The notes under the pieces were generated by a model. That model did not search any database. It saw nothing but the letters and a program-made list of their open reading frames with translations, and was not told the origin of the DNA. A program made the position numbers and the translations under genes. Below, in pieces: positions 12,709 to 28,421 of a DNA stretch of 64,000 bases (positions are counted from its first letter, which is position 1; each line of letters begins with the position of its first letter). Origin of the DNA: a virus; the IMG/VR virus record IMGVR_UViG_3300008259_000011, positions 70,144-134,143 of that record; one strand, written 5' to 3'.

Positions 12709-12731
12709 ATGAAAAAGAACACAAATAAATA

Positions 12732-13361: not shown

Positions 13362-13369
13362 TATAATTT

Positions 13370-13443: not shown

Positions 13444-13455
13444 GCTCTTTAAATT

Positions 13456-13530
13456 TGGTGGACCGTAAGGGAATCGAACCCTTCCCTAAAGCTTGCAAAG
13501 CTCCTGTGCTACCACTATCACTAACAGCCC
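13456..13530 (-). tRNA. trnA: tRNA-Ala(TGC)
   Basis: loop ttTGCaa, G3:U70, CCA. Confidence 0.9.
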
Positions 13531-13579
13531 ATTAATGTCACATAAATAGTATTGATAAGTCTAAACCACAAAATTATAA

Positions 13580-14560: not shown

Positions 14561-14636
14561 AACAATTTATATATTATGAGTCAAACCCTTATCTTTTATT
14601 ATTATTTATAAATAATTGCGTTATATACGATCAACT

Positions 14637-15371
14637 TTATGTAAATAACATCCATTGATTATCATATACTAAAACATTATCAATCACAATAGATCCAAAT
14701 AACTTATTTTCAATTTTATTACGCATTTTAATATTCAACTCAAACTGTTTTGCTGCCCGAATCACATCATGTCGTACATCGTCCCAATACCAGTCATCGC
14801 CAAACAATACCATATTAGGACGCATCAATTGTTCATAACAATCTATTATTTCATTATAAGTTTCATTCTTATAGTGTGCACTATCCAGAAAAATTATAGA
14901 TGGTAAACTAGATATACGATTATGATAACGCATTCTAGCTAACAATTTTATTCCAGTAAGAGATGTACAATTAATCGGTACAATTTTATTTCGATACTCG
15001 TAAGTATTTGCTAAAAACCGTTTGTAAATCGTAGGAATACCATTTTCAAACTGTAAAAACTTATATCCTTCACTCTTAGATTCCAAATCCCACATATTTG
15101 TGTCACCTGTAAATGGATCTATGCATACCACCGAAGAACTGTGTAATCCACATCTATTCAATGATTCAATAATCCGTATACAACTACCACCTACCATTGA
15201 TCCTATTTCTAGAACTGACTCTGGTAAATATTCAGTAAACAAACTATCTAATAAAGCAGGCGTTACATTCGTGTGTGGGTATGAGTTGTCTATATATTTT
15301 ATCACATCACAGTTTGTATACGGTGTGATATTATTATAAATCGTATGATTTAATTCTTTATATATTGACAT
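14637..15371 (-). CDS. class I SAM methyltransferase (Methyltransf_24-like)
   Basis: VLEIGSMVGGS, CIDPF, IFLDSAH, GDDW. Confidence 0.85.
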   Translation of the reverse strand: MSIYKELNHTIYNNITPYTNCDVIKYIDNSYPHTNVTPALLDSLFTEYLPESVLEIGSMVGGSCIRIIESLNRCGLHSSSVVCIDPFTGDTNMWDLESKSEGYKFLQFENGIPTIYKRFLANTYEYRNKIVPINCTSLTGIKLLARMRYHNRISSLPSIIFLDSAHYKNETYNEIIDCYEQLMRPNMVLFGDDWYWDDVRHDVIRAAKQFELNIKMRNKIENKLFGSIVIDNVLVYDNQWMLFT

Positions 15372-15693
15372 ACATTTTAAATATACTCAAATCAACTTCG
15401 TTAAACTTGATGTTGATTTTGTCACAACCCCAGTTGGTTGTCATGCATCTTTTTTAGCTTGATCAACAATTTTTTGTAATAAAATTGCGTGTTCCGATAA
15501 TAAACCTTTCAGTGTTTATATATAGTGTACGTCAAACTAAAAATTAAATTGGATGACCACGACTTGCGAATATACGAGGATTTCACGAAAACGTTCTTGA
15601 TTATCTGTTAACAGCTACATCAATATCTATCTCGTCAACTTCAGTCTTCTCCACCTCAACTGGTGGTGTTTTATAATTCTATATCACTAATGG

Positions 15694-15903
15694 TCAAATC
15701 TTTTCAACAATAATATTGTCTGTCACCGGTTTGCCAAGACATACTCTTGTGTTACAAACCATACAAATCAAATTATTCGTCATAACAGTTATTAAAGAAC
15801 CCTTGATAATACCAAGTTCCTGCAATCTTTGACTAACAACGTTAACCTCGACTATTCGTCCTTTTTCACCAGCTTTTAATTCGGTTAACTTATATCTCTT
15901 CAT
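15694..15903 (-). CDS. feoA: FeoA domain protein
   Basis: LTELKAGEKGRI, RLQELGI..GS.I SH3-like FeoA signature. Confidence 0.8.
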   Translation of the reverse strand: MKRYKLTELKAGEKGRIVEVNVVSQRLQELGIIKGSLITVMTNNLICMVCNTRVCLGKPVTDNIIVEKI

Positions 15904-15908
15904 TAAAA

Positions 15909-15982
15909 TGGTTGCCCGAACTGGATTTGAACCAATACAAAGAGAGTCAAAGTCTCTTGTGCTACCATTACACTATCGGGCA
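15909..15982 (-). tRNA. trnQ: tRNA-Gln(TTG)
   Basis: loop ctTTGac, U1-A72, CCA. Confidence 0.92.
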
Positions 15983-15994
15983 ATTAAAATCTAC

Positions 15995-16120
15995 TTACTT
16001 CTTACGTCGATGTCCTCTAACAGTACTCGACTTCACTCTAACATAAGATGTTCCACCTTTACGACGAATCTTTCGAACCGTCGATTTTCTATGATGTGTT
16101 CTTCTCCATGTTGTTGCCAT
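15995..16120 (-). CDS. 41 aa highly basic microprotein
   Basis: MATTWRRTHHRKSTVRKIRRKGGTSYVRVKSSTVRGHRRKK with TAAGGA RBS. Confidence 0.7.
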   Translation of the reverse strand: MATTWRRTHHRKSTVRKIRRKGGTSYVRVKSSTVRGHRRKK

Positions 16121-16128
16121 ATATTTCC

Positions 16129-16257
16129 TTACTTAGTACGACGTTTAGCGTGAACCGTCTTCGAATGTTTGACTCGGACTGTCTTAGTTCCAGTCTTCGT
16201 CTTGATCGTCCTATTATGTCCCTTTCGGGAGTGCGCCTTAACTGATTTAGTTCCCAT
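16129..16257 (-). CDS. 42 aa highly basic microprotein
   Basis: MGTKSVKAHSRKGHNRTIKTKTGTKTVRVKHSKTVHAKRRTK with AAAGGA RBS. Confidence 0.7.
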   Translation of the reverse strand: MGTKSVKAHSRKGHNRTIKTKTGTKTVRVKHSKTVHAKRRTK

Positions 16258-16276
16258 ATATTTTCCTTTCTTAAAT

Positions 16277-16350
16277 TGGAGCGGGTAGTGAGAATCGAAC
16301 TCACGCATAGGCTTTGGAAGAGCTTCAGGCTACCATTACATCATACCCGC
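16277..16350 (-). tRNA. trnG: tRNA-Gly(TCC)
   Basis: loop ctTCCaa, U73, CCA. Confidence 0.9.
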
Positions 16351-16355
16351 AAAAT

Positions 16356-16445
16356 TGGCGGTTGGGGAAGGATTTGAACCTTCGGGGGCTTTAAGACCCC
16401 GGAGCTTTAGCAAAGCTCTGCATTAGACCACTCTGCCACCCAACC
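16356..16445 (-). tRNA. trnS: tRNA-Ser(GCT)
   Basis: loop ttGCTaa, long V-arm, G73, CCA. Confidence 0.92.
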
Positions 16446-16450
16446 ATAAA

Positions 16451-16984
16451 TCATGTTTTATTTTGAACATTATATCCATTATGTTCAAGAACATCTTTAC
16501 ACAATTTAATAAAATCGTCAAGCAATAAATCTCCTTTTGCCATATTAGCATCTTTACACGCTAAACCCAAATTGTCAATATCACATCCACCACCTTTAGA
16601 TACTGGTATTATGTGATCACAATTGTAAGTTTTTGGCTCTAAAAGATCTATTTTTCTGCCTGTCAAATAACATACCGGATTGTTTGTTATTTTTGTTTCA
16701 AATTCTTTAATTGAAAAGTCTAAACTTTTTCGTTTTCCTTTTCCTATTCGTCTACCATTTACAAAACTAAAGTTATCTTTTTTCCGTCTCAATATACCTT
16801 TTAAGGTTTTTCTATTTGATTTGTTTCTTGTTTTTGTTTTTTCTTTTTGACCAACACCACAATGGTATGAAATAGTTCCTTTTGAACACTTCAACAACTT
16901 TTGTATCTCTTTGTACGATTTGCCTTGTTTTCTCAATTCTAATATTAATGGTTTCACATTAATATATAGTTTGGGTTCGAACAA
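16451..16984 (-). CDS. HNH endonuclease with N-terminal HTH (homing-endonuclease-like)
   Basis: CYLTG, DHIIPVSKGG..IDNL..AC..AN..K; lies between two tRNA-Ser genes; start uncertain. Confidence 0.85.
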   Translation of the reverse strand: MFEPKLYINVKPLILELRKQGKSYKEIQKLLKCSKGTISYHCGVGQKEKTKTRNKSNRKTLKGILRRKKDNFSFVNGRRIGKGKRKSLDFSIKEFETKITNNPVCYLTGRKIDLLEPKTYNCDHIIPVSKGGGCDIDNLGLACKDANMAKGDLLLDDFIKLCKDVLEHNGYNVQNKT

Positions 16985-17027
16985 AAATTAATAATAATTA
17001 TTCGAACTCGTTTTTATTTTCAAAGAA

Positions 17028-17115
17028 TGGCGGTGAAGGAGGGATTTGAACCCCCGGTGGTTTTACCCACTGCAGTTTTCAAGACTGCTGCAATAAACCG
17101 CTCTGCCACCTCACC
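17028..17115 (-). tRNA. trnS: tRNA-Ser(TGA)
   Basis: loop ctTGAaa, long V-arm, CCA. Confidence 0.93.
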
Positions 17116-17124
17116 GTTTAAAAT

Positions 17125-17216
17125 TGTCTACCGTTCGAAGCCGCCTTCATAGAATTACCTATGAGTCTAAGCGGAGTATATCTCCTCGTCCACCGTGTGG
17201 TTACGTTCAAACTAGC
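17125..17216 (-). ncRNA. unclassified multibranch structured RNA candidate
   Basis: closing stem GTTTGAA/TTCGAAC enclosing three hairpins; sits in a tRNA-sized slot. Confidence 0.35.
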
Positions 17217-17220
17217 AAAT

Positions 17221-17304
17221 TGGTGGGCGTAGTAGGATTTGAACCTACACGGATCGCTCCATGAGTTCCTAAGACTCACGTGTCTTCCATTTCACCATAC
17301 GCCC
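17221..17304 (-). tRNA. trnL: tRNA-Leu(TAG)
   Basis: loop ctTAGga, V-arm, CCA. Confidence 0.92.
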
Positions 17305-17310
17305 GTAAAT

Positions 17311-17387
17311 TGGTCGGAGTGACAGGATTTGAACCTGCAACAACTTGCTCCCAAAGCAAGTGCTCTACCAAGTTGAGCTACACTCCG
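17311..17387 (-). tRNA. trnP: tRNA-Pro(TGG)
   Basis: loop ttTGGga, C1-G72, CCA. Confidence 0.93.
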
Positions 17388-17397
17388 ATAAAAATTT

Positions 17398-17562
17398 TCA
17401 ATGAACACCAAGAAGATCCAAATACTTTGTCTCCGGTTGTGGTAGAATTTCATCTGCCACAGTCATAATTGCCTTATAGTAAGCATATGACGGATACTGT
17501 TCCGTAATCTTCATGTTCTTAAGATACTCGAAAAGAACTTTATTGTCAACATCAATTTCCAT
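17398..17562 (-). CDS. small hypothetical protein (54 aa)
   Basis: MEIDVDNKVLFEYLKN...LLGVH fills gap between tRNAs. Confidence 0.5.
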   Translation of the reverse strand: MEIDVDNKVLFEYLKNMKITEQYPSYAYYKAIMTVADEILPQPETKYLDLLGVH

Positions 17563-17582
17563 ATTTTTCTTTCTTTAAAAAT

Positions 17583-17657
17583 TGGTACACGGTGAGGGAT
17601 TTGAACCCCCGACAGCCACGGTGTAAACGTGGTGCTCTGCCGCTGAGCTAACCGTGC
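17583..17657 (-). tRNA. trnV: tRNA-Val(TAC)
   Basis: loop ttTACac, CCA. Confidence 0.92.
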
Positions 17658-17674
17658 ATCTCAATCGTTCATAC

Positions 17675-17702
17675 ATACTAACACCGAATCTGAAAATGTC
17701 AA
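17675..17702 (-). promoter_or_regulatory. sigma70-type promoter upstream of tRNA array 1
   Basis: TTGACA-16nt-TAGTAT. Confidence 0.65.
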
Positions 17703-17716
17703 TGATCTTTTCAAAC

Positions 17717-17781
17717 AAAAAACCGTTGATCTTTTGGACCAACGGTTTCAAATCTGAGCAATTGTTTTTTAACCGTTAGTC
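17717..17781 (-). terminator. attenuator 1: intrinsic terminator (17717-17748) with competing antiterminator strand (17771-17781)
   Basis: AAACCGTTGGTC-CAAAA-GATCAACGGTTTTTT; upstream GACTAACGGTT can pair with the terminator 5' arm. Confidence 0.8.
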
Positions 17782-17785
17782 TAGT

Positions 17786-17857
17786 TTAGCTTGCGCTAGG
17801 GAGTAGCGATGGACTTGGTTGTCCACTGGCTACACTTGACTGTACGGATAAATTCAT
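17786..17857 (-). CDS. leader peptide 1 MNLSVQSSVASGQPSPSLLPSAS (putative attenuation sensor)
   Basis: 23 codons; from codon 4 only Ser/Val/Gln/Ala/Gly/Pro/Leu(CUN), the amino acids of array 1 tRNAs. Confidence 0.8.
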   Translation of the reverse strand: MNLSVQSSVASGQPSPSLLPSAS

Positions 17858-17881
17858 TATGACAATACATATAGTTAAATT

Positions 17882-18814
17882 TCACAAATGTACATTATTT
17901 TTGAACCAAAAGTAAGTTTTTTCCAAACCGTCCATCAAATTTGTACGAGGTTTCCATCCCATCGATAAGATTTTAGAACTGTCCATGATCTTACGTGGCG
18001 TACCATCAGGTTTGGCAGTATCCCATACAACTTCACCTTCATACCCCACAACTTTACATACAGCTTCAGTTGCCTCTTTAATGGTAATATCAGATCCATA
18101 TCCCACGTTGATATGTTGATCAGCGCTGTAATTTTCCATCAAAAACACACACGCTTCCGCTAAATCATCAACATACAAAAACTCTCTCATAGGAGTTCCA
18201 CTTCCCCAACAAACAACTTGAGAATCATTCTTGATTTTTGCCAAATGGAATTTACGAATCAATGCGGGTAACACATGAGAGTTAATTGGATCGAAGTTGT
18301 CCTTGATACCATACAGATTGCATGGCATAGCACTGATAAAATCACACCCATATTGTTGACGATACGCTTGACATGTACGTATACCGGCAATCTTTGCAAG
18401 AGCATACCACTGATTGGTTGGTTCTAATTCACCGGTTAACAGATACTCTTCCTTAATTGGTTGCTGTGCAAACTTCGGATAAATACAACTGCTACCCAAA
18501 AACAACAATTTGTTTACGTTATATACGTATGACGCATTAATGATGTTATTTTGTATCTGTAAATTATTGTATATAAAATCAGCTGGGTATGTACTGTTGG
18601 CAATAATACCGCCAACTTTTGCTGCTGCCATTATCACATACTCTGGCTTTGTAGTTTCAAAAAATTTATTTACAGATTGTTGATTGGTAAGATCCAATCC
18701 ATTATGACCCACACCTATTAAATTCGTATAACCATTATTCAATAGTGTTCGCCAAATAGCAGATCCAACCATTCCGTTATGTCCGGCTACATAAATCTTC
18801 GAACCTTTATTCAT
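17882..18814 (-). CDS. fcl: GDP-L-fucose synthase
   Basis: AGHNGMVGSA, AAKVGGI, FLGSSCIYP, YALAK, SHVLPALIRK, WGSGTPMREF; likely start MNKGSK. Confidence 0.97.
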   Translation of the reverse strand: MNKGSKIYVAGHNGMVGSAIWRTLLNNGYTNLIGVGHNGLDLTNQQSVNKFFETTKPEYVIMAAAKVGGIIANSTYPADFIYNNLQIQNNIINASYVYNVNKLLFLGSSCIYPKFAQQPIKEEYLLTGELEPTNQWYALAKIAGIRTCQAYRQQYGCDFISAMPCNLYGIKDNFDPINSHVLPALIRKFHLAKIKNDSQVVCWGSGTPMREFLYVDDLAEACVFLMENYSADQHINVGYGSDITIKEATEAVCKVVGYEGEVVWDTAKPDGTPRKIMDSSKILSMGWKPRTNLMDGLEKTYFWFKNNVHL

Positions 18815-18884
18815 AGTCTTAATGGTACATATCAAATAACATATTATTAAAATGAAAAAACCACCCAAAGGTGGTTTTCTTTTT

Positions 18885-19118
18885 TCATCCATTCAAACGT
18901 GGCTTGTCACAACAATTGCTAAGTTTTAGAATTTCATCAAGTGACTCTTTAACCCGAATAGGTTCATGACGATTCTTGATAAAAATCAAACTGTGAACCT
19001 TGGACGGTTCAATGTTAATAACCATATCCAAGTTAATCAAATTTGGATTATACTCACGTTGCTTAGCGTTACCGTCATGACTAGGATCAAGTACGTTGAG
19101 TTTAATAAAGTGTGCCAT
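18885..19118 (-). CDS. FlbD-like small protein
   Basis: FIKL...IN.D.V..IE....VKESLDEI pattern. Confidence 0.55.
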   Translation of the reverse strand: MAHFIKLNVLDPSHDGNAKQREYNPNLINLDMVINIEPSKVHSLIFIKNRHEPIRVKESLDEILKLSNCCDKPRLNG

Positions 19119-19195
19119 AAATTGTGTCTATAAATAGTTAACCGGCAATGACATTACATCATTGCCGGTTGTTTGTCAACTATTATCGTCTAGAA

Positions 19196-19891
19196 TTAGA
19201 AGGTCAACTTAAGACCACCGGAATAAACGACGGTTCCAGAGAACTCACGATTTGCCCAATTATACTTGGCAGCATTGAAATCGTTATCGAACCATCCAAC
19301 TTCAGCAAATGGAGTCAAAGTACCCCAAGCAAAAGTGAACGGACGAGCAACAGTGCCCTTAAAGCTAAGGGACTTGTAGTCATTAACGTATCCATACTCA
19401 GCAGCTGGGGTGACAGTCACACCATAAAACAAATTCTGAGTACGGCTAAGTCCAACGAACACGCCTTGCTGATTAAGGTCAATATCGAATGCACCACGAA
19501 CATATGGAGTAACATATGGGTTGTTCAAGGCAACCTTGGCACCAAACTCAGTAGAGTTAGGAATACCAAATCCGCCAGCTTGGTGACGAGTAACATCAGC
19601 GGTAGTACGCAATGAAAACTTCTCGGTCAAACCAAAACTCTTACCAGCACCAAGTGTCCAGTGACTCTGATCTTGATCACCAGTTGGTAGCAACACACCA
19701 CCAGCATACACATCAGCATACTTTAGACTCTTGATTGCGTTGACACCAACAAACGGAGTTCCCCCAGAACGAGAAACACCATTGACCACATAGTGGTTAT
19801 TATAGCCAGCTTCGACTCCAATACTAGAGTCATTAGCCTTAGCGATTAGGGCAGCACAAAGAACTGCCAATACTGCGATCATCTTCTTCAT
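19196..19891 (-). CDS. outer-membrane beta-barrel protein with signal peptide
   Basis: MKK..AKA signal peptide, alternating beta-strands, C-terminal GGLKLTF. Confidence 0.8.
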   Translation of the reverse strand: MKKMIAVLAVLCAALIAKANDSSIGVEAGYNNHYVVNGVSRSGGTPFVGVNAIKSLKYADVYAGGVLLPTGDQDQSHWTLGAGKSFGLTEKFSLRTTADVTRHQAGGFGIPNSTEFGAKVALNNPYVTPYVRGAFDIDLNQQGVFVGLSRTQNLFYGVTVTPAAEYGYVNDYKSLSFKGTVARPFTFAWGTLTPFAEVGWFDNDFNAAKYNWANREFSGTVVYSGGLKLTF

Positions 19892-20140
19892 ATATGTTTA
19901 TTTCCTTTCGTTACTACACTTTTTATAACTACCTTAACACTCATTAAGTTTGTTATAGATTGATGTGATTCAAAGATACACATTCAATCATGTACGTGGA
20001 CAATATACCGTTAAACACCAAAAGTGTCAACGAATTTTTTCCAGTGATATATAGTTTTTACTTTTTTGAAAACTACGACGTTTTTTAGACCATATATACG
20101 CACAAAAAAAGCCAAACAACTTAATGTTTGACTTTAAATT

Positions 20141-20229
20141 TGGTACCACCGGCCGGACTTGAACCGGCACAGGATTTTACTCCCTGCGGATTTTAAGTCC
20201 GCTGTGTCTGCCTATTTCACCACGGTGGC
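20141..20229 (-). tRNA. trnL: tRNA-Leu(TAA)
   Basis: loop ctTAAaa, V-arm, CCA. Confidence 0.92.
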
Positions 20230-20239
20230 ACTATTAAAT

Positions 20240-20323
20240 TGGTGGGTATGGAGGGAGTCGAACCCCCACGCCTTTCGGCGGTTGATTTTGAGTCAACTAC
20301 GTCTGCCATTCCGTCACATACCC
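20240..20323 (-). tRNA. trnL: tRNA-Leu(CAA)
   Basis: loop ctCAAaa, V-arm, CCA. Confidence 0.92.
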
Positions 20324-20331
20324 GTAAATCA

Positions 20332-20418
20332 TCAAACTCATCGTGCTTCCTACCTACACTACGCCTCCTCATTGATTTGAGAGAGTGACGGACCTTGAAC
20401 CCGTCCCTATGCGTTTGA
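20332..20418 (-). ncRNA. circularly permuted tRNA-like RNA (YrlA/Y-RNA-like arm order)
   Basis: T-arm GGTTCAA precedes a closed acceptor-like hairpin and a D-arm-like segment; ends pair TCAAAC/GTTTGA. Confidence 0.5.
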
Positions 20419-20422
20419 AAAA

Positions 20423-20514
20423 TGGTAGCCTCATGCAGAATCGAACTGCCCAGAACGCCAATCGAGCGATTATAGAGATTATAAGTCTCCCCATGCACCT
20501 TACATCTTGAGGCC
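20423..20514 (-). tRNA. trnI: tRNA-Ile(TAT) with long variable arm
   Basis: loop ctTATaa, ~22 nt extra arm, T-arm, CCA. Confidence 0.75.
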
Positions 20515-20720
20515 ACTAAATGGTAGCGGGGCAGTCCTATTAAATTTTAAAGAACCAAATTGAAATTGGGTCGGATGTATCTATTGAACACTTTATCCAT
20601 CCGACAAACAAAGTGTACCATGTACTAGCCCCGCAACCAAGAAGTTTTTTAAGAGATCTTCAATACTCTAGGGGTTGTGGTTTAACCCTCCACCATGTTG
20701 TTTACGAGAAACAACCAAAT

Positions 20721-20796
20721 TGGTAGTCCATAGGAGAATCGAACTCCTATTAACAGGTTGAAAACCTGCTGTCCTAAACCATTAGACGAATGGACC
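20721..20796 (-). tRNA. trnE: tRNA-Glu(TTC)
   Basis: loop ttTTCaa, CCA. Confidence 0.9.
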
Positions 20797-20804
20797 GTTA
20801 AAAT

Positions 20805-20877
20805 TGGAGCAGGTCCGAGGAATCACACCTCACCAACTCACTAGAATGTGAGCATGCTCTCATTACATCTGACCCGC
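20805..20877 (-). tRNA. aberrant Gly-like tRNA, anticodon undetermined
   Basis: Gly-type acceptor and U73-CCA, but 6-nt loop ATTCTA and T-loop TGTGATT. Confidence 0.5.
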
Positions 20878-20886
20878 GTTAAAATT

Positions 20887-21175
20887 CTGGAAGGACTCCT
20901 GACTACCTTCAATTTTCACAATACTACATGCATTCGTCCACAGTCCACATGGTCAATTACTCCGTGTGTTGATGACTGGTGGGCCTTATTTTCCCCACAA
21001 CGACCTACGATATATCAGATATTATATTAGCTACGATGTCGTTACGCTTGGATTTCGGTTGATCGACCTAGATCCGCCATAGACTTGCCACATAGTATTA
21101 TTACTCATACCTTGCCTTGGTTCTTCACCTCAGCAGTGCGTTACCCCTATAAGAAGAGTTATTCCGCCACTAGAA
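20887..21175 (-). ncRNA. ~290 nt structured ncRNA candidate
   Basis: no plausible ORF, several helices, TTGACA..TATACT promoter just upstream (~21203-21230). Confidence 0.45.
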
Positions 21176-21240
21176 ATTGTCAAAGATCTAATATACCCTA
21201 GAGTATATATAGAGTGTTGAACTTGTCAACACAAAAAATT

Positions 21241-21315
21241 TGGTGCGTCCGGCGAGACTTGAACTCGCAACCAACAGATTAAAAGTCTGCTGCTCTACCA
21301 TTGAGCTACGAACGC
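21241..21315 (-). tRNA. trnK: tRNA-Lys(TTT)
   Basis: loop ctTTTaa, CCA. Confidence 0.93.
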
Positions 21316-21321
21316 GTTTGT

Positions 21322-21432
21322 TTAAAGATCATCATCTTCGTACCTAGAATTCATACCACAGAACCTAGCAACCATCAAGAGAAAAATGATGTAAATTGTA
21401 AGTCCGATAAGAAGTCCAAGTGCCAGTTTCAT
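21322..21432 (-). CDS. 36 aa single-TM microprotein
   Basis: MKLALGLLIGLTIYIIFLLMVARFCGMNSRYEDDDL downstream of a TTGACA promoter. Confidence 0.5.
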   Translation of the reverse strand: MKLALGLLIGLTIYIIFLLMVARFCGMNSRYEDDDL

Positions 21433-21466
21433 TATGGATACATCCTACACCGAGAATGTTGTTCTG

Positions 21467-21649
21467 TCAACTGTTTTTGTGAGAATTTTCTTTGATCCAA
21501 TCAAGACGGTGTTTGTTCACCCAATCTGTTAGTGCTTTTTCAAATCCAATATCAGCGTTGGCTTTTTCAGATTCGATCCACTTGTGTTTAAGAATTTCAT
21601 CCCGTATCTTAAGATATTTTGCATATGAAGATGTCGGTTTGGAACTCAT
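21467..21649 (-). CDS. DUF4032-like small protein
   Basis: EILKHKWIESEKA..DIGFE.AL.DW motif. Confidence 0.75.
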   Translation of the reverse strand: MSSKPTSSYAKYLKIRDEILKHKWIESEKANADIGFEKALTDWVNKHRLDWIKENSHKNS

Positions 21650-21706
21650 ACTCAAATAAATAGTTGTTCGTAACAAAACCGTTACATTTGAATGTATAAA
21701 TAAAAT

Positions 21707-21781
21707 TGGAGTTCCGTGTTGGATTTGCACCAACCTAATGCTGTTTTGCAGACAGCCGCCTAACTACTCGACCAACGAAAC
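21707..21781 (-). tRNA. trnC: tRNA-Cys(GCA)
   Basis: loop ctGCAaa, U73, T-loop TGCAAAT. Confidence 0.88.
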
Positions 21782-21787
21782 ATAAAG

Positions 21788-21866
21788 TGGGGTGTACGGC
21801 GGGATTCGAACCCGTATCTGCCAGACTCACAATCTGGGGCATTAAACCAGTTATGCTACATACACC
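21788..21866 (-). tRNA. trnH: tRNA-His(GTG)
   Basis: loop ttGTGag, G-1:C73, CCA. Confidence 0.92.
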
Positions 21867-21874
21867 ATTAAAAA

Positions 21875-21948
21875 TGGAGCCTCCAGCTGGTATCGATCCA
21901 GCGTTTCATCATTACCAATGATGTGTAATACCTTTATACTATGAAGGC
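21875..21948 (-). tRNA. trnT: tRNA-Thr(GGT)
   Basis: loop ttGGTaa, T-loop ATCGATA, CCA. Confidence 0.88.
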
Positions 21949-21953
21949 AAAAG

Positions 21954-22031
21954 TGGTACTGCCGGTAGGAGTCGAACCTACAACCTTCTGATCCGTAGTC
22001 AGATGCTCTAATCCAATTGAGCTACGACAGC
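21954..22031 (-). tRNA. trnR: tRNA-Arg(ACG)
   Basis: loop ctACGga, CCA. Confidence 0.93.
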
Positions 22032-22040
22032 ATTATAAAT

Positions 22041-22117
22041 TGGCGCACCCGGAGGGACTCTAACCCCCAACCTTTCCGGTAGAAACGGATGGCTCTATAC
22101 AATTGAGCTACGAGTGC
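22041..22117 (-). tRNA. trnR: tRNA-Arg(TCT)
   Basis: loop ttTCTac, T-loop TTAGAGT, CCA. Confidence 0.85.
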
Positions 22118-22127
22118 GTTAAAATTA

Positions 22128-22529
22128 TTAGTTATGCATATTACTACCAGCTCCATATCCATTTTGTAATTTTGGAGTATTTAAGATTTCATCTTTTGGA
22201 TCTGGATACACACTGAAAAAATAATGAATGTCATCATTCTTTTTATTTGTGGAATATAATAAAAAATTTACATTACCATTTGGATGTCCTCTACCGTCAA
22301 ATATATAATAATATTCAGGATCAGTGCCAGATAAGGCTGCTTTTGGCACATCTTTAACATATTTAAAGAACACCTCCGAAGATATTCTATATACATTATC
22401 ATCATCACCTAATGTATTTTGCATCCACATAGCCGGTTCTGTAGAATCATCACCCAATCCAAATTGACATATTAATCCTACACAATTACCCAAATATTGT
22501 TCTTTTAGTAAACTTGATAATTTAATCAT
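22128..22529 (-). CDS. hypothetical protein with MIKLxxLLxE motif
   Basis: likely start MIKLSSLLKE just after TATTTATA. Confidence 0.7.
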   Translation of the reverse strand: MIKLSSLLKEQYLGNCVGLICQFGLGDDSTEPAMWMQNTLGDDDNVYRISSEVFFKYVKDVPKAALSGTDPEYYYIFDGRGHPNGNVNFLLYSTNKKNDDIHYFFSVYPDPKDEILNTPKLQNGYGAGSNMHN

Positions 22530-22558
22530 AACTATAAATATATCAAACTTATTTAAGA

Positions 22559-22632
22559 TGGTAGGCAATCACGGTTCCGCCCCGTGGTCTTTCGATTATC
22601 AGTCGAATGCTCTACTATTGAGCTAAATGCCT
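22559..22632 (-). tRNA. trnI: tRNA-Ile(GAT)
   Basis: loop ctGATaa, atypical T-loop GGCGGAA, CCA. Confidence 0.85.
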
Positions 22633-22638
22633 ATTAAA

Positions 22639-22717
22639 TGGCGAGGGTAGCCGGATTCGAACCGAGCAAGTCTGCACAGTGACAGTGTGCTATGTTAGCC
22701 AATTACACTATACCCCC
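22639..22717 (-). tRNA. trnD: tRNA-Asp(GTC)
   Basis: loop ctGTCac, G73, CCA. Confidence 0.88.
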
Positions 22718-22728
22718 ATTAAAATTAA

Positions 22729-22833
22729 TCACCAACACGATAGTTAGCTCATAGGCATATTCGGTTATTGTTCGTCGTCAACAATAATCCCGCTATCTCT
22801 TTTACCACACGACCTGCTTCATAGAGTTGGTGA
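22729..22833 (-). ncRNA. structured RNA candidate
   Basis: perfect 8-bp terminal stem TCACCAAC/GTTGGTGA plus internal hairpin, exactly filling a tRNA spacer. Confidence 0.35.
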
Positions 22834-22836
22834 AAT

Positions 22837-22914
22837 TGGTGCAAGTGATGGGATTTGAACCCACAACCTTTCGGGTAAGAGCCGAATACTCTGATCCAGT
22901 TGAGTTACACTTGC
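22837..22914 (-). tRNA. trnK: tRNA-Lys(CTT)
   Basis: loop ctCTTac, CCA. Confidence 0.88.
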
Positions 22915-23100
22915 ATAAATGGTTTTCCTAGGATTTCACAGTTGTTCTCTTGTTTCGTGCCCTACTCCAAGATCTATCTAGTTCCGCCAGGTGCACCGAA
23001 ATTTTGGTATCACCTGTAAAATTTGTATCTATTATTGTCAACGAACGATAAACATCTTACCACACTTTATTGTTCCGTCAACAATATTCTTAAAAAAATT

Positions 23101-23853
23101 TTAAGTACTAACTGGTTTCTTTGGATAAGGTTGAACTGGTTTAACCAAGTTTGCCAGAATGTTCTTTCCTTCACTAGAGTTTGTACCGGATAAAATGTAA
23201 ATATACTTATGTTTACCGTAATCAATCCGTAATTCAAACGGACTGTCAGGATTTGTTTTTAAATCACGAACTGCATCTCCAGCAGTTTTAAATCCATATT
23301 TTTCTATCTGCGGTTTTCTATTAACCCATCTATCTTCATTTTTATCCCACAAACGTTTTCTAGTTCTACTCTTACCTAGATAAATTGCGTTTGTAGCTTG
23401 ATATACAGTGCCAGTGTGTCCTTGTTCACTATCAGACCGAGTAATAATTACTTTTACTTTAGGATAATTTTGTTTGATCGTTTTATTACCTAATCCAATT
23501 ACGTATGATGCCAAATTATTTTTTAATTCAGGTATTTCTTTCACTTCTGGTTTTAGATATAATCTTAACAATTCTAATAATTCATTCTGTTTAAGTAAAC
23601 TATTACCTTTATCATCCACAGCTATTTCTTGAAAATCTTGTGGCTTGGTAGTCTGTCCATATACAATAACCCCAACCATATCTACATTGCCATCAGGCAT
23701 CTTGTACATCACACCATAATTAACAGTAACCGCTGTTGGATACTTCTTTAGATAATGTTTGTTTATAAAGTCTATAACCTCAGACTTACTCTTTGGTTCT
23801 AGATATACACTATCTTTTAGAGATTCTATCAACAAACTCTTAAATGTTATCAT
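23101..23853 (-). CDS. Mom-like (GNAT-fold) DNA modification protein with MITFKSLLIE motif
   Basis: INKHY, GVIVYG, LELLRLY, SD.EQGHTGTVYQATN.IYLG match the Mu Mom family pattern. Confidence 0.7.
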   Translation of the reverse strand: MITFKSLLIESLKDSVYLEPKSKSEVIDFINKHYLKKYPTAVTVNYGVMYKMPDGNVDMVGVIVYGQTTKPQDFQEIAVDDKGNSLLKQNELLELLRLYLKPEVKEIPELKNNLASYVIGLGNKTIKQNYPKVKVIITRSDSEQGHTGTVYQATNAIYLGKSRTRKRLWDKNEDRWVNRKPQIEKYGFKTAGDAVRDLKTNPDSPFELRIDYGKHKYIYILSGTNSSEGKNILANLVKPVQPYPKKPVST

Positions 23854-24156
23854 ATCGTATAAATAGTAAACATTGAGGATTTCACGGGGGATAATTACTT
23901 CTAGAGAGTAAGTCCCAAACGGCTGTATAGCCTTACCGTTCCACATTTTATACTCCTTCACCAGAGGGAATCGAACCCCAGAGAAATGTGTCTATCTCAA
24001 AAATATATGAGTGGTAGCTGCACCCACTCTCCGTCTTCCCAAGTTTCTCGTCTGGCCACATCTAAGGGCATCCACTTGGATAGTTGATATCGGAGTATAG
24101 AGGCAATAACTCTTTGTTCAGATATGAACAATCCTTTACAAGTCTTGTTCAAAAAA

Positions 24157-24232
24157 TGGCCCGATAGGTTGGTAACGCTCCAACGTCCCTTCGTCTTCAG
24201 CGAAGTGCTAATACTATCTCAGCTACTACCGG
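24157..24232 (-). tRNA. trnF: tRNA-Phe(GAA), atypical
   Basis: loop ctGAAga, T-loop AGCGTTA, G73, CCA. Confidence 0.8.
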
Positions 24233-24245
24233 ATTATAAATTAAA

Positions 24246-24328
24246 TTGACAAGTCAAAGGAATCGAACCTTTTCGGAACAGCAGCATCACTGCTCCTTTA
24301 CCACGCCCTGCGCACTAGCACCTGTCAA
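24246..24328 (-). ncRNA. tRNA-like RNA without CCA
   Basis: terminal stem TTGACAGG/CTTGTCAA, canonical T-arm AAAGG-TTCGATT-CCTTT, no standard anticodon loop. Confidence 0.45.
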
Positions 24329-24334
24329 AGTAAA

Positions 24335-24433
24335 TAACAGAGTGGTTTTGAACCAATCCCATAGAGAATCGTGCATCTTGCCTGGCGTCAAACTCCAAGC
24401 CTTCATTGCTAATTCGATCTATACACTCTGTCA
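24335..24433 (-). ncRNA. structured RNA with T-loop-like hairpin
   Basis: 10-bp terminal stem TGACAGAGTG/CACTCTGTTA, GGTTCAAAACC. Confidence 0.4.
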
Positions 24434-24450
24434 AATCGTTTTTTGATACA

Positions 24451-25278
24451 TTAAAATCTAATATCATCAGTGGAATCGTCAAATCTTTTCTCTAATGGAA
24501 TTGGAACTCCATCGTCATCATAAGTAATCAACTCCGCTGATTTAACTTGATTTGGGTTAAAAACTGCATATACAATTCCTGTACCCGAATGAATTTTTCC
24601 TTCAAATCCACGATTTTCAATTTGAATAAATCCTGTGTATCCTTTGTTCTGAATCCATTCTCTTAAAGACAGCCACTTTCCACCATTTCGGAAAGCCCAT
24701 AATTCTATAATAGACCAAGAAGATTCATCAATAGCTTGATATACAGAATCTATAACTTTAACTTTATTAGAGTCGTCGTATCGTCTATAATCTGGATCTC
24801 TCCACGCCCATTCATGTTCATATTCATCTGTTAATTCTTGAGGTATGTAGTGTGTTGGATTATCCGTTCCAGACATTCCGAATAAAGAGTATTCTGTTCC
24901 AGGCATCATTCCATTTTCTTTCTCTTTTTGAAGTTGCCATTCATAACATTTTTTTATAACAGATTTTAAAAACTGTTTCGTTTTTGAATCTCTCAAATCA
25001 AAGAAATTGGCTTTTAGATAAACTTTGTAAATTTTACTATTTTTACCGAACGACGTTGTACCTTGTCCTGTCTCTTTTTTATAAATTTCCGCATGTTCTT
25101 TATTATCAGTAAAATATAACGCTCCTCTTTTTGAGACTCTAAAATTGTTAAAGGATTTATCACCTATAACAGTTCCGTGAAATAAAGGTCCGACAGTATA
25201 ACCTTTACTATTTGCTGCTTTTTTAACGTCGGCTTCATCCCATTGAGATTCCACAATTAGAGATTTAAGTTTAATCAT
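24451..25278 (-). CDS. ADP-ribosyltransferase-like (ART-PolyVal-type) protein with MIKLKSLIVE motif
   Basis: FHGT, LYFTDN...A..Y, VYLK, GYTG, YAVFNPNQVKSA. Confidence 0.7.
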   Translation of the reverse strand: MIKLKSLIVESQWDEADVKKAANSKGYTVGPLFHGTVIGDKSFNNFRVSKRGALYFTDNKEHAEIYKKETGQGTTSFGKNSKIYKVYLKANFFDLRDSKTKQFLKSVIKKCYEWQLQKEKENGMMPGTEYSLFGMSGTDNPTHYIPQELTDEYEHEWAWRDPDYRRYDDSNKVKVIDSVYQAIDESSWSIIELWAFRNGGKWLSLREWIQNKGYTGFIQIENRGFEGKIHSGTGIVYAVFNPNQVKSAELITYDDDGVPIPLEKRFDDSTDDIRF

Positions 25279-25309
25279 ATATCATATAAATATAACAAAT
25301 CAAAAAAAC

Positions 25310-25418
25310 TAATCTGCATGGTTGGAATTGAACCAACGGCCCGTGCTTATTCACACTTTTACGGTGTCATTTACCATCATAGTGAGCACTGATCTACCTC
25401 TGAACTACACACAGATTA
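25310..25418 (-). ncRNA. tRNA-like RNA with ~37 nt expanded anticodon loop, no CCA
   Basis: acceptor, D and T arms present; GTGCT/AGCAC stem encloses a long insert. Confidence 0.55.
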
Positions 25419-25421
25419 AAA

Positions 25422-25484
25422 TGGTGGGGAGCCTTTCAGCGCCAGATTTACAGTCTGGACCATCTCTTTAATGGTATAATACCC
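25422..25484 (-). pseudogene. truncated tRNA-Tyr(GTA) lacking the T-arm
   Basis: CCAGA-ctGTAaa-TCTGG anticodon arm and CCCCACCA end, no TTCRA arm. Confidence 0.6.
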
Positions 25485-25494
25485 CGAAAAATTT

Positions 25495-25764
25495 AACGTC
25501 ATATGTTTGTTTCACCATATGACAGTGACTGAGGTTCTTCTTTCACCGTTACGTTCTAGTTATCCTCACCTATGCACAGGTAGAACGGCTTTAGTCACTT
25601 CAGAAGATGGCTATTCGATGTTGGGTTACGGGATGACTTACACAGTCTAATTATAACCTACAGTCAGATATCTTGTTGTAGATCAACCCACTCACTCTCC
25701 ACGACTGCCTCACTTGCAATTGAAGCATCTTTCTTCAGCATCGTGAGTCTGCTGACATCGAATA
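25495..25764 (-). ncRNA. ~270 nt multi-domain structured RNA candidate
   Basis: long-range stems TATTCGATGT/ACATCGAATA, AGTGACT/AGTCACT, GTCATATG/CATATGAC; no ORF. Confidence 0.5.
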
Positions 25765-25768
25765 AAAT

Positions 25769-25894
25769 TGGCTCCAGAGGAAGGGCTCGAACCTTCAACA
25801 TTTCGGTTAACTTCAGCCTTGTGAGATTTGCACTCTCTATTAAATAGTACTTTATAGCCCACAGCCGAACGCTCTACCATTGAGCTACTCTGGA
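25769..25894 (-). tRNA. trnN: tRNA-Asn(GTT) interrupted by 51-nt insert in the anticodon loop
   Basis: removing 51 nt restores a canonical 75-nt tRNA with loop ctGTTaa. Confidence 0.8.
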
Positions 25895-25902
25895 ATTGAA
25901 AA

Positions 25903-25976
25903 TGGCTCTCGGAAAAGGAATCGCACCCTTATCATTCGGGTAACAACCGAAGGTAATACTATTATACGATCCGAGA
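25903..25976 (-). tRNA. trnN: tRNA-Asn(GTT), atypical
   Basis: loop ttGTTac, T-loop TGCGATT, G73, CCA. Confidence 0.82.
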
Positions 25977-26146
25977 ATTAAAAATTGATTTGAAAGCGTG
26001 GATTCTCTTACCACTACTTGGGGTGCGTTGCACTTCCGTTCTGATTTCAACAGACTCTCTTTCAAAAATGTTTACTGGATTTCACAATTGTTCCACTTAC
26101 TAATCACAATCTCGTCAGACTGTGATTTTCAATGTCTATCAGTGTC

Positions 26147-26265
26147 AATACATTACTTACTACTTCATCACCTTTTATTGATCGGATTCGAACCGATACT
26201 TCCACCGTATCGTGGTGTTGTTCTACCATTTAAACTACGTGTGTGTTGCCTTCACCTAATGTATT
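26147..26265 (-). ncRNA. tRNA-core mimic on a long stem
   Basis: D-arm, anticodon-like arm and T-arm GGTTCGAATCC without acceptor/CCA; closed by AATACATTA/TAATGTATT. Confidence 0.5.
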
Positions 26266-26272
26266 TGAAAAT

Positions 26273-26347
26273 TGGCATGGACGGTGGGTAACGCTCCCAC
26301 ATTAGGCAGTTTTGGAGACTGCTACATTTCTTGTCTGTCACGTCCAT
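26273..26347 (-). tRNA. trnW: tRNA-Trp(CCA), atypical
   Basis: loop ctCCAaa, G73, T-loop AGCGTTA, D-loop lacking GG. Confidence 0.8.
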
Positions 26348-26355
26348 ATTAAAAA

Positions 26356-26434
26356 TGGCAGCCTCACTCGGAGTCAAACCGAGTTCTCCGGATTGAGAAT
26401 CCAGAATCCTATTACATTCGTAGACGATGAGGCC
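26356..26434 (-). tRNA. trnE: tRNA-Glu(CTC)
   Basis: loop ttCTCaa, CCA. Confidence 0.82.
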
Positions 26435-26498
26435 ATTACATGAGAGTTTTGATGGAACGCATCAACATCGGTCATCTACCGATACTCTCGAAAAAGTG

Positions 26499-26587
26499 AG
26501 CCTCCAGTCAGGTTCGAACTGACAAAGGATTATTAGTCCATTCTCGATTACAAATCGAGGCCGATAGCCAATTCCGGTCATGGAGGC
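26499..26587 (-). tRNA. trnT: tRNA-Thr(TGT) with long variable arm, CCA not encoded
   Basis: loop ttTGTaa, GCC/GGC acceptor, ~18 nt extra arm. Confidence 0.78.
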
Positions 26588-26758
26588 ATAAAAAATTTTC
26601 ACTTACTTCCAATGGATTTTTCACCTATCGTTGGTAGCCATACTATTCCCAGTACGACCGGCGTCTCCTATTCCTTGGCCCGCCTCTACGGTGTTTTGAT
26701 AAGTTCAAAACTTCAAAAAACTCAAGGACAACCGTGTGCCGTCCTTCATCATGTAAAC

Positions 26759-26787
26759 ACTCTATCACCGACTTCCCTCGCCGTCAA
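26759..26787 (-). promoter_or_regulatory. sigma70-type promoter upstream of tRNA array 2
   Basis: TTGACG-17nt-TAGAGT. Confidence 0.6.
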
Positions 26788-26788
26788 C

Positions 26789-26873
26789 AAAAAACCGTCA
26801 CTTTTTTAGGGTGACGGTTGATATTGTTCAAGAAAGGTAAAAGATGAGTCAGAGTACACAATATCAGCCGTCA
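26789..26873 (-). terminator. attenuator 2: terminator (26789-26819) with 16-bp antiterminator (26858-26873 pairing 26812-26827)
   Basis: AACCGTCAC-loop-GTGACGGTTTTTT; TGACGGCTGATATTGT pairs ACAATATCAACCGTCA and overlaps the leader stop codon. Confidence 0.85.
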
Positions 26874-26935
26874 ACACATTCACAATCTCTTGTAAATGTA
26901 TTCCAGCGTTTAATATTGGTATACAAATGGTTCAT
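26864..26935 (-). CDS. leader peptide 2 MNHLYTNIKRWNTFTRDCECVDG (putative attenuation sensor)
   Basis: 23 codons; codons 2-20 all match anticodons present in array 2; TATTTATA motif 7 nt upstream. Confidence 0.85.
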   Translation of the reverse strand: MNHLYTNIKRWNTFTRDCECVDG

Positions 26936-26969
26936 TTTCAAGTATAAATATACGTAAATTTCGAAAACA

Positions 26970-28421
26970 TCAATTTATTTGTATTTTTCCACCTTTTATT
27001 ACAAACGTATGTGGTTGTTGATCATTCAACTTCGCAAGTGTGGCAGGATCTTTGAACGCTGCACCAATCGATCCCATGAACTCTCCAAGTTTGGCTTGTA
27101 ACGATGACAAAAACTTCTCTGCAGCACCTTTAACGTTGGCAACAACTTTCTTAACGGCATCTACACCACGTTGTATAATTCCAGCTTCACTTATTCCCGC
27201 CAACTCCATCAAACGTGGATGACTGTACTCGACACTTTCTTTTCTCCACAAATCACTACCTTTAGTCCACGAACTAAACTTTTCCATACCACTAAATATT
27301 TTATCAATAGTAGAATCAGGAACACCTTGTGTAAGTTGACGAACACGTGTGGCAAGATCTATCTGTAATCCACTCACTTTAGTGCTTGTAATGTCAACCA
27401 CATCAACTTTGTCACGGGTAACATTATAACTTACCTGTTGTACTTTACTAATAACCACACCATTGTGTGTAAATTCACAATTTGATACAACTAATTGGTT
27501 ACTAGAATTAGTTTTAACGGTTCCAGTTATTGTACCATCTTCTCCCAATATGTCATTAAAATCTCTAAGTGAATGGGTTTTCATAGAAACATTGGCCGAC
27601 ATCTGTGTTCCTTTAAATGATTGTTCCTCCAACATTCTATTCAACTTAGCCAAGTTAACGATACGACGAACGGTGTCATCACCTTTAAGATTCTTGATTT
27701 CATCCATCGCACTTTGAAAATCCGCATAAGCAGGATCATTCATCAAATCTGTAGGAGCAATACCATGATCCGCATGTGATATGGCTCTAGCACTATCTTT
27801 ATCCAAAAATTGAGGATCATTCACATCCATTCCCATATCAGCTACCGCTTGACTAATTCTATCTTTCAACGTCTCATCATTCATGTTATTCAACCGTTCC
27901 AAATTATCCAGTTGATCACGTAGATCATCAGCATCACCCACGTTACTTGCATCCATATCAATACCCAACTTTTCAAATATATCATTGAACGCATCCGGAT
28001 TTTGTGAACTCTCAAACCCAGCAACTGCACTTCCAATCAAAGTCAAAACCATCATCGCTAAACGAATCTTGATGAATGCCAACTTTGGATTCTTGGCAAA
28101 AAAACTAACAACCTTTCCAAGAATACTCAACACCAACCCCTGTTTCTTATCTTTTGATTTGTTCTTTAACGACTCAATAGTGGTTGCTAATTTATTTGCA
28201 GACGCTGCATAAATTTTTAAAGAAGCATCATTCAACGCACTACCGGTCTTATTCACTGCAAATGAAATCAAATCACTTGCCTTTTTACCAGCATCCTTAA
28301 TATTAAACTCATTGATCTGACGACCCTCTTTCAACAAAAAAGAATAATCATAAAATTCATTAATGGCACGTTGCGTATCAACATCAATATTTTCAACAAG
28401 AAGAGGTTTTAACTTGATCAT
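26970..28421 (-). CDS. hypothetical, probable virion-internal protein (MIKLKPLLVE motif, one hydrophobic helix)
   Basis: 483 aa ORF. Confidence 0.75.
   Translation of the reverse strand: MIKLKPLLVENIDVDTQRAINEFYDYSFLLKEGRQINEFNIKDAGKKASDLISFAVNKTGSALNDASLKIYAASANKLATTIESLKNKSKDKKQGLVLSILGKVVSFFAKNPKLAFIKIRLAMMVLTLIGSAVAGFESSQNPDAFNDIFEKLGIDMDASNVGDADDLRDQLDNLERLNNMNDETLKDRISQAVADMGMDVNDPQFLDKDSARAISHADHGIAPTDLMNDPAYADFQSAMDEIKNLKGDDTVRRIVNLAKLNRMLEEQSFKGTQMSANVSMKTHSLRDFNDILGEDGTITGTVKTNSSNQLVVSNCEFTHNGVVISKVQQVSYNVTRDKVDVVDITSTKVSGLQIDLATRVRQLTQGVPDSTIDKIFSGMEKFSSWTKGSDLWRKESVEYSHPRLMELAGISEAGIIQRGVDAVKKVVANVKGAAEKFLSSLQAKLGEFMGSIGAAFKDPATLAKLNDQQPHTFVIKGGKIQIN

Follow-up and report, generated by a model that had tools for sequence, protein, structure and literature searches.

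Leader-peptide attenuation is known for amino-acid operons and for some aminoacyl-tRNA synthetase operons, in which one to three amino acids are read, in runs of codons. The trp, his, leu and phe leaders and the pheST leader of Escherichia coli each read a single amino acid through tandem codons and regulate a protein product, and the leader of pheST, a synthetase operon, illustrates that attenuation can serve the translation apparatus rather than amino-acid synthesis. Among the multivalent attenuators of enterobacteria, the thr leader reads Thr and Ile, and the ilvGMEDA leader reads Ile, Leu and Val. T-box riboswitches act without translation, by direct binding of uncharged transfer RNA (tRNA), and their targets are synthetase and amino-acid genes. 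We describe here an element that heads a tRNA gene array in a 64,000-nucleotide stretch of viral DNA (positions 70,144–134,143 of the IMG/VR record IMGVR_UViG_3300008259_000011), referred to below as the window; all coordinates are those of the window and all features are on its minus strand, unless otherwise indicated. The element lies between positions 26951 and 26789 and is probably a ribosome-mediated (leader-peptide) transcription attenuator reporting on the decoding of the array's own codons. A textbook switch here appears to act on the tRNA genes themselves: each amino acid served by the array is represented by one or a few codons in the leader, and a second leader in the same window covers the complementary half of the code. 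An initial annotation made from the letters alone had recognized a trp/his-type attenuation geometry at this site, and each of the sequence-level predictions of this geometry that we tested held, also across relatives.

The element resembles the thr and ilvGMEDA leaders in having a short open reading frame (ORF), mutually exclusive helices between regions 1 and 2, 2 and 3, and 3 and 4 (1:2, 2:3 and 3:4), an intrinsic terminator, a stop codon whose position would let a finishing ribosome mask region 2, and a predicted response to several amino acids. Unlike these leaders, which control biosynthetic enzymes and read runs of two or three amino acids, it precedes tRNA genes, carries scattered codons for 12 amino acids, belongs to a complementary pair of leaders, has no Shine-Dalgarno sequence and almost no 5' leader, and is followed by a promoter behind its terminator. 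It shares its attenuation geometry with the trp, his, leu, phe and pheST leaders, but these read one amino acid each and regulate a protein. With T-box riboswitches it has in common the coupling of tRNA state to a choice between terminator and antiterminator; no T-box was found among the 38 Rfam matches with E ≤ 1 in the interval 12000–28000. The Rfam leader families (Thr, His, Leu, Trp and Phe) gave no match with E ≤ 1 at 26780–26960, and no Rfam family corresponds to the element; the sole leader-family match, to Phe_leader at 18828–18884 on the plus strand, scored 27 bits against a gathering score of 55. Attenuator-like leaders before the tRNA-Phe genes of E. coli were considered as a precedent but found no support: pheV and pheU have no annotated leader, and the sequence upstream of pheV contains no obvious leader ORF.

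The nearest published function encountered is that of a 26-gene trn tRNA operon on a bacterial megaplasmid of Anabaena PCC 7120, which is silent, is induced under translational stress and is controlled at its promoter by the RHH-family repressor TrcR (PMC8421152; PMC10272220). The trn operon and the phage array are alike in being accessory tRNA arrays, the expression of the former rising, and that of the latter presumably rising, when translation is impaired; they differ in that the latter belongs to a phage and would be controlled by an attenuator rather than by TrcR. Neither main text contains a word beginning with "attenuat" or the term "leader peptide" (PMC8421152; PMC10272220). A literature search, conducted mainly at the level of abstracts, yielded no account of the attenuation of tRNA genes, and no phage tRNA operon controlled in this way was known to the initial annotation.

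The leader reading frame and its helices

The 23-codon ORF reported initially is present at 26864–26935, with 23 sense codons and a stop codon at 26866–26864. After its start codon, this ORF (leader 2) contains three codons each for Asn and Thr, two each for Arg, Cys and Asp, and single codons for His, Leu, Tyr, Ile, Lys, Trp, Phe, Glu, Val and Gly. Three DNA-pattern scans raised the set of loci carrying the element to 25 lake-phage contigs, 24 of which hold the whole ORF and which comprise 21 distinct sequences; the sequences compared in this set are related by descent. The ORF and the stems are conserved throughout the set, the absence of such conservation having been named initially as grounds for refutation. 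A promoter-like gene-start motif (26943–26951) is located 7 bases upstream of the start codon, and seven of its columns are invariant across the 21 sequences. In the whole record, the 8-base motif occurs 43 times in the orientation of the leader, and 13 of these copies sit 2–8 bases before the first ATG of an ORF of at least 80 amino acids; in the reverse orientation, no copy is found within 8 bases of the start of such an ORF. Shine-Dalgarno-like words are present at 19 of 120 long-ORF starts in this phage, and there is none at leader 2. The motif is either a promoter for nearly leaderless messenger RNAs (mRNAs) or a translation signal, and the small ORF is equipped like the real genes of the phage. 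The oriented 8-base motif consists of A+T, and the phage seems to make use of nearly leaderless gene starts.

The start codon is retained in 20 of the 21 aligned sequences; L050 differs in that column and uses another ATG. The frame is open from the homologous start in all 24 contigs holding it whole (21 distinct sequences), over 19–27 codons and despite insertions and deletions. By our reading of the alignment, the distance from the start codon to region 2 is 65, 66, 69, 71 or 72 bases, so that two of the three frames are used; both end at a stop codon inside or just past region 2 (inside in 5 distinct sequences, just after it in 15), and the third frame, which would cross the terminator, is never seen. 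The stop codon lies 24–43 bases ahead of the 5' arm of the terminator in all 25 loci. Within codons 5–15, there are nine variable sites, distributed as 6, 3 and 0 over codon positions 3, 1 and 2, and every amino-acid replacement remains within the class served by the downstream array. These sequence features are indirect signs that the leader 2 ORF may be translated.

Codons 5–11 pair with the stretch around the stop codon, so that the leader ORF forms the 5' half of a long hairpin, and the set of 1:2, 2:3 and 3:4 helices is complete, with energies of −27.1, −17.7 and −11.8 kcal/mol, respectively. The long hairpin has a fold z-score of −6.4, and none of 200 shuffled sequences folds as well. 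Region 1 (codons 5–11; 26904–26924), defined from the minimum free energy (MFE) fold, is the partner of region 2; its helices 1–3 are 89–100% paired across the 21 sequences, the outermost pair having changed on both sides. Between regions 1 and 2 lies an inner hairpin of 13 base pairs with a 4-base loop (26873–26902), recovered by folding, by the alignment and by RNAalifold, which is possibly a pause hairpin; one of its pairs (alignment columns 99/133) is A-U in 11 sequences, C-G in 5 and G-C in 3. Region 2 (26854–26873) spans the stop codon, with 26870–26854 pairing with region 1 and 26873–26858 with region 3. It is followed by a variable spacer (26828–26853), the loop of the antiterminator, which has no conserved columns and varies in length among the 21 sequences. 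The 3' half of region 3 (26812–26827) is the 5' arm of the terminator; the 5' half of region 3, outside the terminator stem, is nevertheless conserved.

The initial annotation had proposed a 16-base antiterminator with one mismatch, spanning the stop codon and sequestering the 5' arm of an intrinsic terminator, and both structures are as described. In the antiterminator (26873–26858 with 26827–26812), 15 of 16 positions are paired, with one C/A mismatch, and most of the 5' arm of the terminator is included. The terminator, or helix 3:4 (26789–26819), has a 9-base-pair stem (26819–26811 with 26801–26793), a 9-base loop and a run of six T; 98.9% of the cells of its alignment are paired and seven of its nine pairs are invariant across the 21 sequences. 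A consensus terminator scan listed the hairpin on the plus strand only; the minus-strand terminator was presumably missed because its loop has 9 bases and the maximum allowed by the scan is 8. Folding of both conformations, suggested as a check of the initial proposal, was extended to the 21-sequence alignment: in the terminated fold, 92.3% of 794 cells are paired, and in the antiterminator 91.1% of 315 cells (15 pairs), as against 26–54% in slid controls, in which the 3' partners were moved by one to three columns. Neither the pairing nor the covariation score observed was matched by any of 500 shuffles. True double changes affect few pairs, five and three in the two folds, and the sequences are close, so that more weight is placed on pairing kept through wobble, on the free loop between regions 2 and 3 and on the conserved extension of region 3. 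RNAalifold, unaided, recovers the inner hairpin, a 9-base-pair half of helix 2:3 and the terminator.

Directly behind the terminator lies, as noted initially, a sigma-70-like promoter (P2; 26759–26787), which is TG-extended with 9 of 12 matches, and there are further promoter-like sites inside the tRNA array. Of 20 distinct downstream sequences, 18 contain a P2-like site identified by pattern and a further one contains a site recognized by eye (19/20), 1–30 bases behind the terminator. Because this promoter is conserved, attenuation would gate only the transcription that comes from the leader's own promoter, a caveat already attached to the initial proposal, and one that stands.

Several minor features were observed downstream of P2. 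A second terminator-like hairpin (26724–26746), with nine pairs and a T-rich tail, lies no more than 40 bases into the presumed P2 transcript and overlaps a 15-codon ORF. In L007, L020 and L040 the sequence of this stretch is kept, without the frame of the overlapping ORF. Between P2 and the first tRNA gene, at about 26600–26700, there is a conserved and apparently structured segment, also located at about 1380–1490 of L065; in another phage (G004), the segment recurs before the Val-first array; L026, L064 and L066 share a different module at this site. These segments look like exchangeable pre-tRNA leader modules.

tRNA arrays and the codons of their leaders

The presumed regulated genes are those of tRNA array 2 (20141–26587), identified with ARAGORN and Rfam, which serves Thr, Glu, Trp, Asn, Phe, Lys, Asp, Ile, Arg, His, Cys and Leu (UUR-reading) and contains a Tyr remnant. 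ARAGORN called 25 minus-strand tRNA genes between 13370 and 26587, together with a transfer-messenger RNA (tmRNA) on the same strand, and Rfam added five tRNA-like genes to these default calls. They comprise an Ile(gat) tRNA (22562–22632, 56 bits) that is missed by ARAGORN and had been claimed initially, a Glu(ctc) tRNA (26359–26434) called by ARAGORN only with relaxed or intron options, two tRNA-like genes with inserts of about 30–50 bases in or near the anticodon loop (25772–25894 and 25313–25414), also called by ARAGORN with relaxed or intron options, and a partial tRNA copy (26180–26238). The tRNA-Tyr remnant, at about 25400–25470, has an anticodon arm (about 25444–25458), a variable-arm-like hairpin and a 3' end but no T arm, and is the truncated copy described previously. 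An intact Tyr(gta) gene was observed at the same place in the array in the relatives L010, L020, L022, G001, G002, G005 and G009.

According to our reading under standard wobble rules, 19 of the 22 leader 2 codons after the start codon are read by array 2 tRNAs; the unmatched ones are the Tyr codon and, near the end, those for Val and Gly, which are the exceptions named from the outset. A tRNA gene follows the element in all 22 loci with at least 400 bases of downstream sequence, within 176–1662 bases, and Thr(tgt) is the first tRNA called by ARAGORN in 17 of them.

A sister element (leader 1; 17717–17857) consisting of an ORF, a region 2 and a terminator heads tRNA array 1. Its 23-codon ORF (17857–17786) has the same gene-start motif 7 bases upstream, its region 2 (17781–17771) lies just past the stop codon and is complementary to the 5' arm of the terminator (17747–17717), and the fold has a z-score of −6.3. 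A consensus-like promoter (17702–17675) follows, and then the tRNA-Val at 17657 of the Val-first array 1. After the start codon, leader 1 contains eight Ser codons, three Pro, three Leu, two Val, two Gln, two Ala, one Gly and one Asn. A scan of the 134-kilobase (kb) record for the gene-start motif, a short ORF and a terminator with a perfect stem returned exactly two units, leaders 1 and 2; the two leaders were thus not selected from among many candidates.

Codons of the array 1 class (array 1 amino acids and the Leu codon family) account for 20 of the 22 codons of leader 1 and for 2 of the 22 codons of leader 2; the remaining 20 codons of leader 2, like the other two of leader 1, are of the array 2 class (Fisher p = 5.1e-8 for this mirror), and leader 2 contains all 12 array 2 amino acids. 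The permutation test of codon matching envisaged initially was performed with composition-matched shuffles in which the frame remained open. Among 45,021 such shuffles, 170 (0.38%) were as array-2-pure as leader 2, 0.17% covered all 12 array 2 amino acids and four (0.009%) were both pure and complete; for leader 1, one of 111,680 composition-matched shuffles was as array-1-pure. The record contains 823 small ORFs; the purity of leader 2 is reached by 12 of them, and that of leader 1 by no ORF other than leader 1. The codon-to-tRNA link is modest for leader 2 alone and becomes strong when the complementary leader 1 is considered. The leader pair recurs in 10 other contigs, in which the leader 1 peptides are almost wholly different in sequence but keep the Ser/Gln/Pro/Ala/Gly/Val/Leu palette, the pattern expected of a leader that is read for its codons rather than for its peptide.

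The proposed switch and competing explanations

The sequence contains an ORF with the phage's usual start context, enrichment in particular codons (in an unusual form, with no tandem runs), the exclusive helices 1:2, 2:3 and 3:4, an intrinsic terminator and the stop placement of an attenuator. From this anatomy, its conservation and the codon/tRNA mirror, we infer a start site, translation, stalling and read-through, as follows. Transcription would start a few bases before the start codon, at the usual gene-start motif, giving an mRNA with almost no 5' leader, and a ribosome would translate the 23-codon ORF while RNA polymerase proceeds. If decoding is prompt, the ribosome would reach the stop codon and cover region 2, region 3 would pair with region 4 and transcription would end at the T tract (26794–26789). 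If the ribosome stalls within about the first 16 codons, region 1 would be held open, and region 2 would be free to pair with region 3 before region 4 is made; the terminator could not then form, and transcription would enter the tRNA genes. As the ORF holds one to three codons per array 2 amino acid, a shortage of any of these charged tRNAs would raise the output of the array. The control of array 2 would be a feedback by the operon's own product, and leader 1 would do likewise for array 1.

This scheme was modelled by placing a 30-base ribosome footprint on the transcript before region 4 exists, a simplification rather than a kinetic simulation. With the footprint at codons 2–15, 12–15 of the 16 region 3 bases are paired upstream in 20 of the 21 sequences, and with the footprint at the stop codon 0–10 of them are paired; for leader 1, the model gives 11 of 12 bases paired on stalling versus four at the stop. 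These results fit the classical logic, in which a finished ORF would lead to termination and a stall to read-through. Equilibrium folding with a ribosome mask was set aside as a decisive test because attenuators act kinetically.

Several observations weigh against a tRNA-sensing attenuator or limit its reach. When full-length transcripts are folded at equilibrium, the terminator is lost under the footprint in 11 of 21 sequences and survives in 10; in the partial transcript with no ribosome, the antiterminator is already the MFE structure in 16 of 21. Given these two results, the switch must be kinetic. With one to three scattered codons per amino acid and no tandem runs, the sensitivity to any single tRNA may be low, and the conservation of P2 and the presence of promoter-like sites within the array mean that most array transcription may bypass the attenuator. 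The window lacks an intact tRNA-Tyr, and leader 2 contains none of the codons exactly complementary to the anticodons of Glu(ctc), Lys(ctt), Ile(tat) and Leu(taa). Most relatives have Val, and some Gln, at codons 3–4 of leader 2, and only some have a Val or Gln tRNA in array 2; the correspondence is inconsistent among 10 contigs, and this comparison is usable neither way because ARAGORN misses some genes. Leader 1 opens with one to four residues of the array 2 class, and the locus L050/G006, with a divergent leader, has only three tRNA genes in 18.7 kb of downstream sequence. The bias of variable sites towards third codon positions is statistically weak (p = 0.04); the same positions are also constrained by pairing, and the sequences share descent. 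The peptide core of leader 2 is strongly conserved, which could equally reflect the overlapped RNA helices or a function of the peptide. Contigs from metatranscriptome libraries lend weak support to the attenuator: they include one 151-base record over 26791–26941 and one 178-base record bridging the terminator (26716–26893), and an RNA-library record from a relative spans the terminator region. These records are assembled contigs, in which RNA ends and levels are not visible and DNA carry-over is possible; depths are given per contig, which precludes a ranking of the leader against the array, and parts of 25900–28400 not covered by contigs carry no information.

The scattered codons also suit an alternative that we regard as unlikely, in which a translation-coupled attenuator senses general translation capacity (ribosome supply, elongation rate or global stress) rather than particular tRNAs. 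Any unfinished ORF would lead to read-through, and the biased codons would be a by-product of, for example, a shared history of leader and array. The folding of the ribosome-free transcript fits this explanation, as simply missing the stop would suffice when the antiterminator is favoured in 16 of 21 sequences, and in leader 1 only a ribosome at the stop disrupts helix 2:3. A sensor of general capacity nevertheless leaves unexplained why the two leaders have mirror-image codon sets matching their own arrays (Fisher p = 5e-8, and the shuffles) and why leader 1 keeps its composition while its sequence diverges.

It is less probable still that the ORF is incidental to a non-translated structured RNA, such as a terminator or insulator ending an upstream transcript, a hairpin for ribonuclease processing or a small RNA. 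The z-score of the long hairpin (−6.4), the near invariance of the terminator, the separate promoter of the array behind it and the lack of a Shine-Dalgarno sequence would all be natural for such an RNA, although this last absence is the rule in this phage. A structured RNA would have no need for a start codon and an open frame kept through insertions and deletions, for the use of only the two frames that end at region 2 or for a gene-start motif at the normal distance, and it offers no account of the codon-class mirror with leader 1. An ordinary small-protein gene with its own terminator, in which the peptide is functional and the 2:3 pairing irrelevant, would account for the highly conserved and mostly synonymously changing peptide core of leader 2 (codons 5–15), but is highly improbable, given that the C-terminal third differs between groups in both frame and sequence although the RNA pairs are maintained, that leader 1 peptides diverge almost completely with their composition kept, and that the extension of region 3 complementary to the stop-codon region is conserved with no coding role.

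Leader-peptide attenuation by the array's own codons remains the reading that we favour. If it is correct, phages would meter their tRNA supply by demand instead of expressing their arrays constitutively, and at the molecular level their tRNA arrays would be tied directly to starvation or to host defences that target tRNA. This bears on why large phages carry near-complete sets of tRNAs and how these sets are used. When individual aminoacyl-tRNA synthetases are inhibited, the two leaders would be expected to respond in opposite ways and, if functional, they would constitute compact natural sensors of decoding rate for many codons at once. On balance, we lean towards a broader view in which giant lake phages run a tRNA homeostat, with each sub-array autoregulated via a leader containing at least one codon per amino acid served; a shortfall of any phage-supplied tRNA, such as that following cleavage by a host anticodon nuclease, would stall the ribosome on the leader and open the array that repairs it. 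On this view, these would be the first tRNA genes placed under leader-peptide attenuation and the first paired leaders dividing the genetic code between them; the part assigned to anticodon nucleases is speculation.

The phage, its relatives and neighbouring genes

The IMG/VR virus record whose second half constitutes the window is 134,143 bases long, with a G+C content of 38% and a CheckV completeness of 51%. Relatives reach 296–304 kb, indicating that it derives from a giant phage, and the sequencing runs containing the stretch are lake and freshwater metagenomes. The gene directly upstream of the element encodes a 483-amino-acid protein, and the leader ORF begins 34 bases past its stop codon. 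Pfam and PHROGs gave no family for this protein, and megablast, blastn and tblastn searches of the GenBank phage collection with the region and this protein gave no match.

The upstream protein has 40 relatives in public data. Used as a single query, it led to no confirmed related locus in viral contigs; metagenome and viral contigs were scanned with an alignment of its 40 relatives, and 20 loci were examined. The element lies directly after the gene in three of these 20 loci (L007, L010 and L020), in which the protein is only about 56% identical. In L002 and L003, which have the closest relatives of the gene, the next gene is one with a similar N-terminus and not the leader, so that the junction between the 483-amino-acid gene and the tRNA region is variable. 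A back-translated pattern of the first 13 codons of the leader had no matches in viral contigs. One pattern scan returned 18 loci, two of which hold the element and 16 of which are unrelated coding matches, and seven of the 24 loci returned by another are unrelated terminators. L057 is a divergent member of the set with several codon-sized insertions.

ARAGORN called a tRNA-like gene with a four-base anticodon between His or Thr and Arg(acg) in L069, L070, L071, L076 and L077; these loci are array 2 of the relatives G001, G004, G005, G007 and G008, and no counterpart was called in the window. Protein genes are interspersed among the tRNA arrays at 13580–14560, 16451–16984, 17882–18892, 23101–23961 and 24451–25278. 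The interspersed proteins are an FkbM-type methyltransferase, an HNH endonuclease, a nicotinamide adenine dinucleotide (NAD)-dependent sugar epimerase, a Mom-like DNA-modification protein and a protein with an ART-PolyVal ADP-ribosyltransferase domain. Array 1 is closed by the phage tmRNA gene (12309–12708), whose position is shared by relatives; the tag peptides have similar endings.

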